Shown: in pieces, positions 1 to 3,576 of the stretch
How the letters are laid out: every line of letters starts with the position of its first letter
Numbering within the stretch: the stretch's first letter is position 1
Sequence record: LC710217.1
DNA from: Escherichia phage MS2
Strand: one strand, 5' to 3'
DNA: 3,576 nt
Notes under the pieces: model-generated
Database searches by the model: none
What the model saw: the letters and a program-made list of their open reading frames with translations, nothing else
What the model was told of the DNA's origin: nothing
Program-made: the position numbers and the translations under genes

Positions 1-48
1 GGCCGATTCTATTTTTCGCCGTTTACCTGCTTATCTTTTTCCTGCTCA

Positions 49-55
49 ACTTCCT
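49..55 (+). promoter_or_regulatory. Candidate upstream complementary sequence (UCS) that can pair with the maturation-gene Shine-Dalgarno
   Basis: acttcct (49..55) can pair with aggaggt (135..141) as 6 Watson-Crick pairs plus one G-U wobble. Levivirus maturation-gene translation is known to be controlled by SD sequestration in a long-range 5' UTR helix. The exact partner is assigned by inspection only. Confidence 0.4.
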
Positions 56-134
56 GTCGAGCTAATGCCATTTTTAATGTCTTTAGCGAGACGCTACCAT
101 GGCTATCGCTGTAGGTAGCCGGAATTCCATTCCT

Positions 135-141
135 AGGAGGT
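135..141 (+). promoter_or_regulatory. Shine-Dalgarno sequence of the maturation (A) protein gene
   Basis: aggaggt lies 7-8 nt upstream of the GTG at 149..151. This is a strong, near-consensus SD. Confidence 0.85.
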
Positions 142-148
142 TTGACCT

Positions 149-1330
149 GTGCGAGCTTTTAGTACCCTTGATAGGGAGAACGAGACCTTCGTCCCCTCCG
201 TTCGCGTTTACGCGGACGGTGAGACTGAAGATAACTCATTCTCTTTAAAATATCGTTCGAACTGGACTCCCCGTCGTTTTAACTCGACTGGGGCCAAAAC
301 GAAACAGTGGCACTACCCCTCTCCGTATTCACGGGGGGCGTTAAGTGTCACATCGATAGATCAAGGTGCCTACAAGCGAAGTGGGTCATCGTGGGGTCGC
401 CCGTACGAGGAGAAAGCCGGTTTCGGCTTCTCCCTCGACGCACGCTCCTGCTACAGCCTCTTCCCTGTAAGCCAAAACTTGACTTACATCGAAGTGCCGC
501 AGAACGTTGCGAACCGGGCGTCGACCGAAGTCCTGCAAAAGGTCACCCAGGGTAATTTTAACCTTGGTGTTGCTTTAGCAGAGGCTAGGTCGACAGCCTC
601 ACAACTCGCGACGCAAACCATTGCGCTCGTGAAGGCGTACACTGCCGCTCGTCGCGGTAATTGGCGCCAGGCGCTCCGCTACCTTGCCCTAAACGAAGAT
701 CGAAAGTTTCGATCAAAACACGTGGCCGGCAGGTGGTTGGAGTTGCAGTTCGGTTGGTTACCACTAATGAGTGATATCCAGGGTGCATATGAGATGCTTA
801 CGAAGGTTCACCTTCAAGAGTTTCTTCCTATGAGAGCCGTACGTCAGGTCGGTACTAACATCAAGTTAGATGGCCGTCTGGTGTATCCAGCTGCAAACTT
901 CCAGACAACGTGCAACATATCGCGACGTATCGTGATATGGTTTTACATAAACGATGCACGTTTGGCATGGTTGTCGTCTCTAGGTATCTTGAACCCACTA
1001 GGTATAGTGTGGGAAAAGGTGCCTTTCTCATTCGTTGTCGACTGGCTCCTACCTGTAGGTAACATGCTCGAGGGCCTTACGGCCCCCGTGGGATGCTCCT
1101 ACATGTCAGGAACAGTTACTGACGTAATAACGGGTGAGTCCATCATAAGCGTTGACGCTCCCTACGGGTGGACTGTGGAGAGACAGGGCACTGCTAAGGC
1201 CCAAATCTCAGCCATGCATCGAGGGGTACAATCCGTATGGCCAACAACTGGCGCGTACGTAAAGTCTCCTTTCTCGATGGTCCATACCTTAGATGCGTTA
1301 GCATTAATCAGGCAACGGCTCTCTAGATAG
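149..1330 (+). CDS. mat: Maturation protein (A protein / assembly protein), GUG-initiated, 393 aa
   Basis: ORF of 393 codons starting GTG at 149 and ending TAG at 1328..1330. The translation (MRAFSTLDRENETFVPSVRVYADGETEDNSF...LDALALIRQRLSR) matches my recollection of the MS2 A protein. A GUG start with a strong upstream SD is the known arrangement. First gene in canonical levivirus order. Confidence 0.96.
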   Translation: MRAFSTLDRENETFVPSVRVYADGETEDNSFSLKYRSNWTPRRFNSTGAKTKQWHYPSPYSRGALSVTSIDQGAYKRSGSSWGRPYEEKAGFGFSLDARSCYSLFPVSQNLTYIEVPQNVANRASTEVLQKVTQGNFNLGVALAEARSTASQLATQTIALVKAYTAARRGNWRQALRYLALNEDRKFRSKHVAGRWLELQFGWLPLMSDIQGAYEMLTKVHLQEFLPMRAVRQVGTNIKLDGRLVYPAANFQTTCNISRRIVIWFYINDARLAWLSSLGILNPLGIVWEKVPFSFVVDWLLPVGNMLEGLTAPVGCSYMSGTVTDVITGESIISVDAPYGWTVERQGTAKAQISAMHRGVQSVWPTTGAYVKSPFSMVHTLDALALIRQRLSR

Positions 1331-1343
1331 AGCCCTCAACCGG

Positions 1344-1366
1344 AGTTTGAAGCATGGCTTCTAACT
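1344..1366 (+). promoter_or_regulatory. Coat-gene initiator hairpin with the AUG in the loop, preceded by SD ggag (1342..1345)
   Basis: agtt (1344..1347) pairs with aact (1363..1366) and gaagc (1349..1353) pairs with gcttc (1357..1361), leaving atg 1354..1356 as the loop. GGAG sits about 8 nt upstream of the ATG. This matches the well-studied MS2 coat initiator hairpin whose stability tunes coat translation. Confidence 0.7.
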
Positions 1367-1746
1367 TTACTCAGTTCGTTCTCGTCGACAATGGCGGAAC
1401 TGGCGACGTGACTGTCGCCCCAAGCAACTTCGCTAACGGGGTCGCTGAATGGATCAGCTCTAACTCGCGTTCACAGGCTTACAAAGTAACCTGTAGCGTT
1501 CGTCAGAGCTCTGCGCAGAATCGCAAATACACCATCAAAGTCGAGGTGCCTAAAGTGGCAACCCAGACTGTTGGTGGTGTAGAGCTTCCTGTAGCCGCAT
1601 GGCGTTCGTACTTAAATATGGAACTAACCATTCCAATTTTCGCTACGAATTCCGACTGCGAGCTTATTGTTAAGGCAATGCAAGGTCTCCTAAAAGATGG
1701 AAACCCGATTCCCTCAGCAATCGCAGCAAACTCCGGCATCTACTAA
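1354..1746 (+). CDS. cp: Major coat (capsid) protein, 130 aa including the initiator Met
   Basis: ORF from ATG 1354 to TAA 1744..1746, immediately followed by an in-frame TAG 1747..1749 (tandem stops). The translation MASNFTQFVLVDNGGTGDVTVAPSNFANGVAEWISSNSRSQAYKVTCSVRQSSAQNRKYTIKVEVPKVATQTVGGVELPVAAWRSYLNMELTIPIFATNSDCELIVKAMQGLLKDGNPIPSAIAANSGIY matches the MS2 coat protein as I recall it. Confidence 0.98.
   Translation: MASNFTQFVLVDNGGTGDVTVAPSNFANGVAEWISSNSRSQAYKVTCSVRQSSAQNRKYTIKVEVPKVATQTVGGVELPVAAWRSYLNMELTIPIFATNSDCELIVKAMQGLLKDGNPIPSAIAANSGIY
1446..1452 (+). promoter_or_regulatory. Min Jou long-distance interaction, 5' partner (inside the coat gene)
   Basis: tgaatgg at 1446..1452 is the exact reverse complement of ccattca at 1757..1763, just upstream of the replicase start. 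The 7-bp helix does not extend on either side. It corresponds to the known MS2 interaction that represses replicase initiation until ribosomes translating the coat gene open it. Confidence 0.8.
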
Positions 1747-1924
1747 TAGACGCCGGCCATTCAAACATGAGGATAACCCATGTCGAAGACAACAAAGAAG
1801 TTCAACTCTTTATGTATTGATCTTCCTCGCGATCTTTCTCTCGAAATTTACCAATCAATTGCTTCTGTCGCTACTGGAAGCGGTGATCCGCACAGTGACG
1901 ACTTTACAGCAATTGCTTACTTAA
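1697..1924 (+). CDS. lys: Lysis protein L, 75 aa, in the +1 frame overlapping the coat 3' end and replicase 5' end
   Basis: ORF from ATG 1697 to TAA 1922..1924. The translation METRFPQQSQQTPASTNRRRPFKHEDNPCRRQQRSSTLYVLIFLAIFLSKFTNQLLLSLLEAVIRTVTTLQQLLT has the hydrophobic C-terminal segment typical of MS2 L. It matches my recollection of MS2 L except N at residue 27, where I recall Y. There is no strong SD, consistent with the known coupling of L translation to coat-gene termination. Confidence 0.93.
   Translation: METRFPQQSQQTPASTNRRRPFKHEDNPCRRQQRSSTLYVLIFLAIFLSKFTNQLLLSLLEAVIRTVTTLQQLLT
1757..1763 (+). promoter_or_regulatory. Min Jou long-distance interaction, 3' partner (upstream of the replicase start)
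   Basis: ccattca is the reverse complement of 1446..1452 (tgaatgg). Confidence 0.8.
1765..1783 (+). promoter_or_regulatory. Translational operator (TR) hairpin: coat-protein binding site and packaging signal covering the replicase SD and AUG; loop variant with A at -5
   Basis: acatgaggataacccatgt. Stems acat/atgt and gg/cc, bulged A at 1770 (-10), 4-nt loop 1773..1776 (ataa), replicase ATG at 1780..1782, SD gagga at 1769..1773. The canonical MS2 operator as I recall it is ACAUGAGGAUUACCCAUGU with loop AUUA. Here position 1775 (-5) is A, not U. Confidence 0.9.
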
Positions 1925-3417
1925 GGGACGAATTGCTCACAAAGCATCCGACCTTAGGTTCTGGTAATGACGAGGCGACCCGTCGTACCTTAGCTATCGC
2001 TAAGTTACGGGAGGCGAATGATCGGTGCGGTCAGATAAATAGAGAAGGTTTCTTACATGACAAATCCTTGTCATGGGATCCGGATGTTTTACAAACCAGC
2101 ATCCGTAGCCTTATTGGCAACCTCCTCTCTGGCTACCGATCGTCGTTGTTTGGGCAATGCACGTTCTCCAACGGTGCCTCTATGGGGCACAAGTTGCAGG
2201 ATGCAGCGCCTTACAAGAAGTTCGCTGAACAAGCAACCGTTACCCCCCGCGCTCTGAGAGCGGCTCTATTGGTCCGAGACCAATGTGCGCCGTGGATCAG
2301 ACACGCGGTCCGCTATAACGAGTCATATGAATTTAGGCTCGTTGTAGGGAACGGAGTGTTTACAGTTCCGAAGAATAATAAAATAGATCGGGCTGCCTGT
2401 AAGGAGCCTGATATGAATATGTACCTCCAGAAAGGGGTCGGTGCCTTTATCAGACGCCGGCTCAAATCCGTTGGTATAGACCTGAATGATCAATCGATCA
2501 ACCAGCGTCTGGCTCAGCAGGGCAGCGTAGATGGTTCGCTTGCGACGATAGACTTATCGTCTGCATCCGATTCCATCTCCGATCGCCTGGTGTGGTGTTT
2601 TCTCCCACCTGAGCTATATTCATATCTCGATCGTATCCGCTCACACTACGGAATCGTAGATGGCGAGACGATACGATGGGAACTATTTTCCACAATGGGA
2701 AATGGGTTCACATTTGAGCTAGAGTCCATGATATTCTGGGCAATAGTCAAAGCGACCCAAATCCATTTTGGTAACGCCGGAACCATAGGCATCTACGGGG
2801 ACGATATTATATGTCCCAGTGAGATTGCACCCCGTGTGCTAGAGGCACTTGCCTACTACGGTTTTAAACCGAATCTTCGTAAAACGTTCGTGTCCGGGCT
2901 CTTTCGCGAGAGCTGCGGCGCGCACTTTTACCGTGGTGTCGATGTCAAACCGTTTTACATCAAGAAACCTGTTGACAATCTCTTCGCCCTGATGCTGATA
3001 TTAAATCGGCTACGGGGTTGGGGAGTTGTCGGAGGTATGTCAGATCCACGCCTCTACAAGGTGTGGGTACGGCTCTCCTCCCAGGTGCCTTCGATGTTCT
3101 TCGGTGGGACGGACCTCGCTGCCGACTACTACGTAGTCAGCCCGCCTACGGCAGTCTCGGTATACACCAAGACTCCGTACGGGCGGCTGCTCGCGGATAC
3201 CCGTACCTCGGGTTTCCGTCTTGCTCGTATCGCTCGAGAACGCAAGTTCTTCAGCGAAAAGCACGACAGTGGTCGCTACATAGCGTGGTTCCATACTGGA
3301 GGTGAAATCACCGACAGTATGAAGTCCGCCGGCGTGCGCGTTATACGCACTTCGGAGTGGCTAACGCCGGTTCCCACATTCCCTCAGGAGTGTGGGCCAG
3401 CGAGCTCTCCTCGGTAG
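1780..3417 (+). CDS. rep: RNA-directed RNA polymerase (replicase beta subunit), 545 aa
   Basis: ORF from ATG 1780 to TAG 3415..3417. The translation begins MSKTTKKFNSLCIDLPRDLSLEIYQ and ends TFPQECGPASSPR, and contains the polymerase motif IGIYGDDIICPS. Last gene in canonical levivirus order, with its start embedded in the operator hairpin. Confidence 0.97.
   Translation: MSKTTKKFNSLCIDLPRDLSLEIYQSIASVATGSGDPHSDDFTAIAYLRDELLTKHPTLGSGNDEATRRTLAIAKLREANDRCGQINREGFLHDKSLSWDPDVLQTSIRSLIGNLLSGYRSSLFGQCTFSNGASMGHKLQDAAPYKKFAEQATVTPRALRAALLVRDQCAPWIRHAVRYNESYEFRLVVGNGVFTVPKNNKIDRAACKEPDMNMYLQKGVGAFIRRRLKSVGIDLNDQSINQRLAQQGSVDGSLATIDLSSASDSISDRLVWCFLPPELYSYLDRIRSHYGIVDGETIRWELFSTMGNGFTFELESMIFWAIVKATQIHFGNAGTIGIYGDDIICPSEIAPRVLEALAYYGFKPNLRKTFVSGLFRESCGAHFYRGVDVKPFYIKKPVDNLFALMLILNRLRGWGVVGGMSDPRLYKVWVRLSSQVPSMFFGGTDLAADYYVVSPPTAVSVYTKTPYGRLLADTRTSGFRLARIARERKFFSEKHDSGRYIAWFHTGGEITDSMKSAGVRVIRTSEWLTPVPTFPQECGPASSPR
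2794..2805 (+). other. Catalytic YGDD motif (RdRp motif C) within the replicase
   Basis: Codons tac ggg gac gat in the rep frame encode Y-G-D-D within IGIYGDDII. This is the conserved active-site motif of levivirus replicases. Confidence 0.9.
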
Positions 3418-3576
3418 CTGACCGAGGGACCCCCGTAAACGGGGTGGGTGTGCTCGAAAGAGCACGGGTCCGCGAAAGCGGTGGCTCCACCGAAAGGTGG
3501 GCGGGCTTCGGCCCAGGGACCTCCCCCTAAAGAGAGGACCCGGGATTCTCCCGATTTGGTAACTAGCTGCTTGGCG
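3418..3576 (+). other. 3' untranslated region with a series of stable stem-loops; the terminal hairpin is truncated
   Basis: GC-rich noncoding tail after the rep stop. Hairpins read by eye: 3431..3444 (ccccg-UAAA-cgggg), 3450..3465 (gtgctc-GAAA-gagcac), 3470..3481 (ccgc-GAAA-gcgg), 3487..3500 (ccacc-GAAA-ggtgg), 3503..3514 (gggc-UUCG-gccc) and 3541..3553 (cggga...tcccg). The 5' arm of the terminal hairpin (ggtaactagc, 3558..3567) and its loop (tgcttg, 3568..3573) are present, but the 3' arm and terminal CCCA are missing. Confidence 0.8.

Follow-up and report, generated by a model that had tools for sequence, protein, structure and literature searches.

The record LC710217.1, filed under Escherichia phage MS2, comprises 3,576 nucleotides (the whole stretch of DNA analysed here, termed the window), and its length raises the question of whether it represents a complete phage genome and, if not, what stands at its ends and how it came there. 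The original prediction had taken positions 1-3576 as a cDNA-sense copy of an MS2-type ssRNA coliphage genome and not a cellular locus. Megablast aligned window 40-3575 with nt 21-3556 of MS2 NC_001417.2/V00642.1 at 99.4% identity over 3536 nt, so the outcome that would have spoken against an MS2 origin, no similarity to MS2 on alignment, did not occur, and the near-identity anticipated for about 41..3575 was right to within one base. Identity to GQ153927.1 was 99.6% over the 3536 nt of window 40-3575, and MK213795.1 had 8 differences over window 64-3539; LC710218.1 matched window 45-3555 at 100.0% by megablast, with a single substitution, at window 2596, by direct alignment. By ungapped comparison, the identities to other phages were 96.7% (R17), 92.8% (M12) and 92.3% (FrHenna). 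The alignments, four Pfam families and a match to RF02359 agree in identifying window 40-3575 as coliphage MS2 (Emesvirus zinderi), + strand. The exclusion of a cellular locus therefore stands for 99% of the window but fails for bases 1-39, which are E. coli agaD, and the proposed extent likewise holds for 40-3575 but not for these non-MS2 bases or for position 3576, a mismatch. The features of the window, all on the + strand, are as follows.

1..39, + strand: E. coli agaD fragment (K-12 MG1655 agaD nt 398-436), replacing MS2 nt 1-20; blastn and direct read
40..45, + strand: junction microhomology TCCTGC, agaD nt 437-442 and equally MS2 nt 21-26; direct comparison
40..3575, + strand: MS2 + strand, genome nt 21-3556; megablast and direct alignment
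149..1330, + strand: mat (A or maturation protein), GTG start, 393 aa; ORF and Pfam PF03863 Phage_mat-A, 683.7 bits
1354..1746, + strand: cp (coat protein), 130 aa; ORF and Pfam PF01819 Levi_coat, 229.2 bits
1446..1452, + strand: Min Jou 5′ arm, within cp; complementary to 1757-1763
1697..1924, + strand: lys (lysis protein L), 75 aa, beginning within the last part of cp and running into rep; ORF and PF11125 Phage_MS2_lysis, 133 bits
1757..1763, + strand: Min Jou 3′ arm, directly upstream of the operator hairpin; complementary to 1446-1452
1765..1783, + strand: replicase translational operator or TR packaging hairpin, ACAUGAGGAUAACCCAUGU; Rfam RF02359 and predicted fold
1780..3417, + strand: rep (RNA replicase beta subunit), 545 aa; ORF and PF03431 RNA_replicase_B, 709 bits
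3418..3575, + strand: 3′ UTR, ending within the terminal hairpin loop; alignment and folding
3576..3576, + strand: single terminal G, mismatching MS2 nt 3557 (T); alignment

All four genes are intact, with Pfam scores far above the cut-offs, and the gene content that had been claimed, namely the order mat, cp, lys and rep, a GUG-started A gene and an embedded +1-frame lysis gene, was recovered in full by ORF and Pfam analysis. The arrangement is that of MS2, mat-cp-rep with lys lying across cp/rep; judged by start coordinates modulo 3, rep shares the frame of cp, and lys is +1 relative to both. Compared with NC_001417.2, the coat protein is identical in sequence, mat carries G42R and S245V, and the L protein carries Y27N, while rep S273C is private to the window. 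Searches for identical proteins, with rep and with mat in both its V- and its M-initiated form, gave no record. On the minus strand, the largest entry in the window ORF list reaches 84 aa, and none of these ORFs found support.

The RNA elements on which replicase expression depends in MS2 were found as well. The operator hairpin that had been claimed matches Rfam RF02359 at 1748-1783, scoring 56.4 bits where the gathering score is 40 (E 7.5e-12); the rep AUG occupies 1780-1782, the bulged A is base 1770 and the loop spans 1773-1776. Nothing is changed in its stem, its bulged A, A-7 or A-4, and the one difference lies in the loop, which reads AUAA where the wild type has AUUA; this substitution, U(-5)A, falls at window 1775 (MS2 nt 1756) and also produces the Y27N change of the L protein, and folding predicts the wild-type structure at the wild-type energy (-5.3 kcal/mol). 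The claimed Min Jou pairing is likewise present, its arms (window 1446-1453, MS2 1427-1434, and window 1757-1764) showing no change from the reference and 1446-1452 forming 7 contiguous Watson-Crick pairs with 1757-1763, within an extended duplex of -12.8 kcal/mol. Going by the literature on MS2, this pairing presumably functions as it does there. Expression would begin with the GUG-initiated maturation protein, followed by the coat protein, with L translated in the +1 frame over the boundary between cp and rep; the Min Jou pairing would keep replicase translation shut until ribosomes pass through cp, and a coat-protein dimer bound to the operator hairpin carrying the rep AUG would later repress the replicase.

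MS2 nt 1756 has been named the -5 position (bioRxiv 10.1101/2021.08.10.455819), which is normally U in MS2, binding being tighter with C and other bases somewhat disfavoured (PMC12803234). The operators of the related Emesvirus phages GA and fr are built like that of the window: the stem has a bulged purine, the loop is 4 nt long and the rep AUG lies in the 3′ arm. GA (Emesvirus japonicum, a different species) also has A at -5, in a loop AAAA, whereas fr keeps U at -5 in a loop AAUA and so differs from the window. In the crystallographic work of Grahn et al. from 2001, purines at -5 reportedly gave weaker binding. It is a lesser possibility that U(-5)A represents an adaptive loosening of the coat-protein repression of replicase, and the substitution could also act through L Y27N.

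A separate candidate was a 15-bp inverted repeat pairing 1694-1708 with 3208-3222, considered as an undescribed long-range helix. It is unchanged in R17, M12 and FrHenna, 7 of its 15 positions are pairable in fr, and about 0.7 such matches would turn up by chance in each shuffled window; we judged it a chance occurrence.

Among MS2 records, the closest relative of the window is LC710218.1 (MS2 GI_B), which comes from wastewater in Yamanashi, Japan; the same study also yielded a Q-beta record, LC710219. Across window 45-3555 the two sequences are one base apart, T in the window against A in GI_B at 2596 (rep S273C in the window). Both have the mat substitutions G42R and S245V and, together with U(-5)A in the operator, L Y27N; C567T, C1986T, T3038C and C3299T, all synonymous, are shared too. 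The GI_B record gives the reverse complement, with an MS2 insert of about nt 29-3537; it keeps Illumina adapter remnants at both ends and has no agaD fragment. NC_001417.2/V00642.1 (Fiers et al. 1976) and MK213795.1 (ATCC 15597-B1-type) encode the same four genes, whose coordinates agree once an offset of +19 is allowed for, and the coat protein, Min Jou arms and operator stem of NC_001417.2 are all as in the window; they differ from it in possessing nt 1-20 and 3557-3569, and relative to reference-type MS2 the window carries G253C, C567T, T862G together with C863T, T1756A, C1986T, A2577T and C3299T. Several further apparent differences from NC_001417.2, at MS2 2002-2007, 2159-2160, 2426/2429, 2591 and 3450-3463, recur in all 5 other MS2 records compared, so that it is the old reference that is peculiar there. 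The 1976 reference departs from the GI_B lineage partly through its own old errors.

Some of the changes in the window have arisen elsewhere. Of the laboratory-evolved MS2 clones FJ799651-FJ799712, 24 carry the same AUAA operator loop (T1756A), and FJ799674.1 (‘clone L3.G50.15’, host E. coli TOP 10 F′) also has G253C and mat G42R as in the window, indicating that such changes as T1756A and G253C recur under laboratory passage. These clones differ from the window in lacking mat S245V, C567T, C1986T, A2577T and C3299T and in having private substitutions of their own.

Neither authentic genome end, the 5′ GGGUGGGACCCCUUUCGGGG... hairpin or the 3′ ...UAGUUACCACCCA, was found in the full window. 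By alignment and sequence search, MS2 nt 1-20, which make up most of the 5′-terminal hairpin, occur nowhere in it, and neither do nt 3557-3569 (TAGTTACCACCCA), which comprise the 3′ arm of the terminal hairpin plus ACCACCCA. As both genome termini are missing, the window is neither a full-length nor a replicable genome. Its length, which had been noted as close to the ~3.57 kb of MS2, does agree numerically (3576 versus 3569 nt) but is no sign of completeness, and the match is a coincidence because the window is composed of 39 foreign bases, 3536 MS2 bases and 1 mismatched base. For initiation the replicase needs the GGG of the 5′ end and, on the minus strand, its complement at the 3′ end, so a genome without nt 1-20 could not propagate. 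MS2 nt 1-28 fold as one hairpin of -24.1 kcal/mol (RNAfold), and the ends of the window are most probably not biological, reverse transcription or sequence coverage having failed within the two very stable terminal hairpins.

The 39 bases that stand where the 5′ terminus is missing are of host origin. Window 1-45 matches nt 398-442 of MG1655 agaD with 0 mismatches, and by blastn window 1-44 matched 5277 of 5426 complete E. coli genomes, many at 100%, in the gene annotated agaD. The segment lies in the sense orientation of the agaD CDS, whose product is the PTS galactosamine transporter subunit IID; the gene is annotated as cryptic in K-12, where it is probably poorly transcribed. Another phage or a vector as the source was rejected, phage records giving weak partial matches and nothing comparable to agaD, and the full-length matches in PLSDB being agaD on chromosome-sized records; a rearranged or inverted piece of MS2 was rejected too, with no repeat tying 1-39 to the rest of the window. 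The shared hexamer at the junction sits within the 3′ arm of the MS2 5′-terminal hairpin. A 33-nt junction sequence gave 0 exact matches in IMG/VR viral and JGI metagenome contigs, neither of which would be expected to hold the source library, and alignment showed the junction to be missing from the closest sibling record, LC710218.1.

Taken as a whole, the window is very probably a contig or record assembled from MS2 cDNA, of a lineage nearly identical to GI_B, that has lost its termini and acquired its host tag, probably by template switching. The nascent cDNA would most probably have switched template at the MS2 5′ side through the 6-nt microhomology (UCCUGC), the acceptor being an E. coli agaD transcript, or a host DNA strand of the same sense, that came along from the propagation host; this would have put 39 host bases where MS2 nt 1-20 stood. 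The arrangement at the join is that of such a switch, sense agaD running into sense MS2 across the shared bases and inside the very hairpin that folds so stably. The probability of at least 6 ambiguous bases in a random blunt join would be about 7/4^6 = 0.002, which argues for copy-choice and not ligation. In addition, the MS2 insert of LC710218.1 begins where this 5′ hairpin has its foot, at nt 29, so that short-read cDNA of this lineage stops there, and by alignment and folding the 3′ end of the window likewise lies within a terminal hairpin. With agaD cryptic and probably poorly transcribed, an mRNA acceptor is not obvious, and contaminating host DNA may have served. We infer an in vitro origin of the join, at the stage of library construction, and the host tag is most likely a sequencing-library artefact.

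The same geometry, sense to sense across a 6-nt microhomology, would be produced if MS2 replicase in the infected cell, making the minus strand and moving towards the 5′ end of its + strand template, had stalled at the base of the 5′-terminal hairpin and switched at UCCUGC onto host agaD mRNA (copy-choice recombination), and levivirus replicases do recombine with host RNAs, as in the Q-beta RQ RNAs with host-derived segments. We nevertheless consider this improbable. A product without MS2 nt 1-20 would give a complement without the replicase initiation site, a non-amplifiable dead end too rare to dominate a consensus, and the ends needed for replicase recognition and initiation are indeed not kept, 20 nt being missing at the 5′ end and 13 nt at the 3′ end. 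Independent recovery of the junction, which a recombinant formed in vivo might show, was obtained neither from the two contig collections nor from LC710218.1, the sister contig merely ending at the foot of the hairpin, and the cryptic annotation of agaD in K-12 also speaks against its mRNA as the acceptor.

An artefact later than reverse transcription, whether ligation of cDNA fragments, a PCR-mediated chimera or an assembler misjoin, gains some credit from the poorly trimmed, adapter-bearing ends of LC710218.1 in the same series, which point to low end quality in the data set, but is very improbable in our view: blunt ligation would yield 6 shared nt only at the low chance rate given above and the sense-sense orientation in just 50% of cases, PCR jumping normally needs longer homology, and 6 shared bases are far under any assembler k-mer, so that a physical chimeric molecule must have existed. 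That the sequence is given as DNA and begins with chromosomal E. coli sequence might also suggest a DNA locus, either MS2 cDNA cloned into a vector or cDNA that had integrated into the E. coli chromosome within agaD. This is effectively refuted, as MS2 sequence was found in 0 of 5,426 complete E. coli genomes and 0 of 72,556 plasmid records (PLSDB), the full-length PLSDB matches of the 5′ segment are only agaD on very large records and no vector, and the 3′ end of the window bears no host or vector sequence; we know of no mechanism for levivirus cDNA integration.

Template switching during reverse transcription thus remains our preferred origin of the join, and its consequences are mainly ones of curation. 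The first 39 bases are host contamination to be trimmed, and the record is not to be handled as a complete or infectious genome, for a host tag left on a ‘viral’ record could pass for horizontal transfer or a novel 5′ UTR. Had the event occurred in the cell, it would be a natural levivirus-host RNA recombination caught in a near-genome-length molecule. The ends and host tag aside, the sequence is already known, an ordinary near-full-length copy of a textbook RNA phage, and the view that it belongs to one of the best-characterised genomes and holds no undescribed system is borne out by matches to MS2 at the nucleotide, Pfam and Rfam levels. The scientific weight is slight, all the elements present being those of textbook MS2, whose genome was the first to be sequenced. 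The U(-5)A change, found again in laboratory lines and in the wastewater lineage, is of practical note as a small polymorphism occurring naturally in the MS2 hairpin, which with MCP forms the RNA-protein tethering pair in widest use.

A megablast search of 50,697 phage records returned 300 matches, all to levivirus-type phages and 286 with the organism prefix Escherichia; among the matches listed, every row was phage MS2. Window 40-3575 aligned gap-free with nt 21-3556 of the MS2 reference NC_001417.2/V00642.1 at 99.4% identity, as anticipated by the original prediction of an MS2-type genome nearly identical to MS2 across ~41..3575. GQ153927.1 ('MS2_ancestral') was 99.6% identical, and LC710218.1, a Yamanashi (Japan) wastewater phage recorded as 'Escherichia phage MS2 GI_B', was 100.0% identical over window 45-3555, a global alignment placing its sole substitution at window 2596 (T versus A, rep S273C). 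Other Emesvirus zinderi strains were further from the window (R17 96.7%, M12 92.8%, FrHenna 92.3%), a divergence in line with expectation, and by each sequence criterion tested the window is assigned to Emesvirus zinderi. The only respect in which it falls short is that of a 'complete genome with authentic termini'. The following features were identified.

Window 149-1330, + strand: maturation protein (mat) ORF, GTG start, 393 aa; Pfam Phage_mat-A, 683.7 bits
Window 1354-1746, + strand: coat protein (cp) ORF, 130 aa; Pfam Levi_coat, 229.2 bits
Window 1697-1924, + strand: L lysis protein (lys) ORF, 75 aa; Pfam Phage_MS2_lysis, 133 bits
Window 1780-3417, + strand: RNA replicase beta subunit (rep) ORF, 545 aa; Pfam RNA_replicase_B, 709 bits
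Window 1748-1783: MS2 operator hairpin; Rfam RF02359 'Bacteriophage MS2 operator hairpin', 56.4 bits, E 7.5e-12
Window 1446-1453 and 1757-1764 (MS2 1427-1434 and 1738-1745): Min Jou arms, same as the reference

These four + strand ORFs, from an ORF listing of the entire window, and their four Pfam families agreed with the predicted order mat-cp-lys-rep, the GTG-started mat and the +1-frame lys: by start coordinates modulo 3, cp and rep share one frame and lys, which overlaps the cp end and the rep start, lies +1 to both. The predicted operator hairpin and Min Jou pairing were likewise both present, the former as the sole Rfam family matched in the window (gathering score 40) and the latter as 7 contiguous Watson-Crick pairs. 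The coat protein sequence was unchanged from that of NC_001417.2. A 15-bp perfect inverted complementarity (window 1694-1708 with 3208-3222; 14 Watson-Crick pairs and one G-U) was also observed, connecting the lys start-codon region with the rep coding region. MS2, R17, M12 and FrHenna all share it without variation, but it is probably fortuitous, because pairing is possible at just 7/15 positions in fr and each shuffled window would yield about 0.7 such matches by chance.

Compared with MK213795.1 (ATCC 15597-type) over window 64-3539, eight differences were found, in MS2 coordinates G253C (mat G42R), C567T, T862G+C863T (mat S245V), T1756A, C1986T, A2577T and C3299T. The mat G42R change (window 272) is also carried by the laboratory-evolved clone FJ799674.1, a sharing which suggests a recurrent change. 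Two neighbouring substitutions occupy mat codon 245 (window 881-882), which encodes Val in the window and GI_B, Ser in NC_001417.2 and Pro in GQ153927.1, i.e. three residues among near-identical MS2 records. The rep S273C change was private to the window among six records compared, and may reflect either real variation or an error in the consensus. Further differences from NC_001417.2 (MS2 2002-2007, 2159-2160, 2426/2429, 2591 and 3450-3463) are peculiarities of this old RefSeq/1976 reference, because the window base was common to 5/5 other MS2 records compared; these discrepancies, compensating indels and base swaps that affect replicase residues 81-83 and 134, look like legacy sequencing errors.

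The MS2 match extends from window 40 to 3575 and no further. Window 1-45 corresponds at 100% identity to the agaD gene of E. coli (PTS galactosamine transporter subunit IID), sense strand, oriented as the agaD CDS and with zero mismatches to nt 398-442 of K-12 MG1655 agaD, and window 1-44 was matched in 5277/5426 complete E. coli genomes. Only past base 45 do the two diverge, E. coli reading GCGTCGG... and the window the MS2 TCAACTT..., and therefore TCCTGC (40-45) belongs to both parents as a 6-nt microhomology. Neither MS2 nt 1-20 (GGGTGGGACCCCTTTCGGGG) nor nt 3557-3569 (TAGTTACCACCCA) was found anywhere in the window, and its final base G mismatches MS2. The length, predicted near ~3.57 kb, was indeed close (3576 versus 3569), but accidentally so, as 3576 = 39 + 3536 + 1. 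The agaD frame runs over the junction into MS2 for 20 codons and then stops (window 3-65; PILFFAVYLLIFFLLNFLSS); as the fragment has no start codon, this frame is of no evident significance. LC710218.1, like the window, lacks true MS2 termini. Its MS2 insert starts at nt 29, the exact foot of the 5′ hairpin, and both its ends (1-48 and 3560-3605) carry Illumina adapter remnants (…GTGTGCTCTTCCGATCT and GATCGGAAGAGCACACGTCTGAACTCCAGTCAC…). Labelled 'MS2 GI_B, complete genome', it was deposited reverse-complemented with respect to the + strand, despite which its misc_feature coordinates agree with the forward orientation.

MS2 nt 1-28 fold into one hairpin (−24.1 kcal/mol, RNAfold) with the junction within its 3′ arm, and at the 3′ side the sequence breaks off in the terminal hairpin's loop. 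Reverse-transcriptase template switching during cDNA synthesis is the most likely origin of the join: the enzyme, at the strong pause site in the MS2 5′ hairpin, would have switched via the 6-nt microhomology onto nucleic acid of the propagation host. The sense-to-sense join, the 6-nt sharing (chance at a blunt join about 0.002 by our own calculation), the strong pause site and the available propagation-strain nucleic acid form its signature. An assembler misjoin was rejected, six shared bases being far too few, so the chimera must have existed as a physical molecule. None of the 5426 complete E. coli genomes and no PLSDB plasmid contained MS2 sequence, which excludes a DNA copy, whether integrated or cloned. 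A recombinant truly formed in the cell, by replicase copy-choice between MS2 RNA and a host transcript, would have the same geometry as the template switch, but is very improbable, as such a chimera would lack initiation sequences and hence not be amplifiable. Neither IMG/VR nor JGI metagenome contigs contained the junction 33-mer. The 5′ tag, being of host origin, should preferably be regarded as contamination and trimmed off.

The operator loop reads AUAA versus the usual AUUA, through a change at window 1775 (MS2 nt 1756), named the −5 position (bioRxiv 10.1101/2021.08.10.455819). This U(−5)A change leaves the predicted hairpin and energy the same, and also turns L protein Tyr27 into Asn (Y27N). 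The operator-region 57-mer was matched exactly by 25 of the 288 public records covering the region, namely 24 clones of one laboratory passage series (FJ799651-FJ799712, e.g. 'clone L3.G50.15') and LC710218.1. In phage GA the −5 base is naturally A (loop AAAA); fr retains U. Grahn and colleagues reportedly found in 2001 weaker binding, in an unchanged mode, with purines at −5. In a recent mutational scan, this loop position showed a strong preference for C, with every other base 'slightly disfavored' (PMC12803234). U(−5)A is thus a known and tolerated polymorphism, apparently recurrent and perhaps adaptive; a plausible effect, which we infer, is slightly weaker repression of replicase by the coat protein. 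The window functions exactly like MS2 and brings no new biology.
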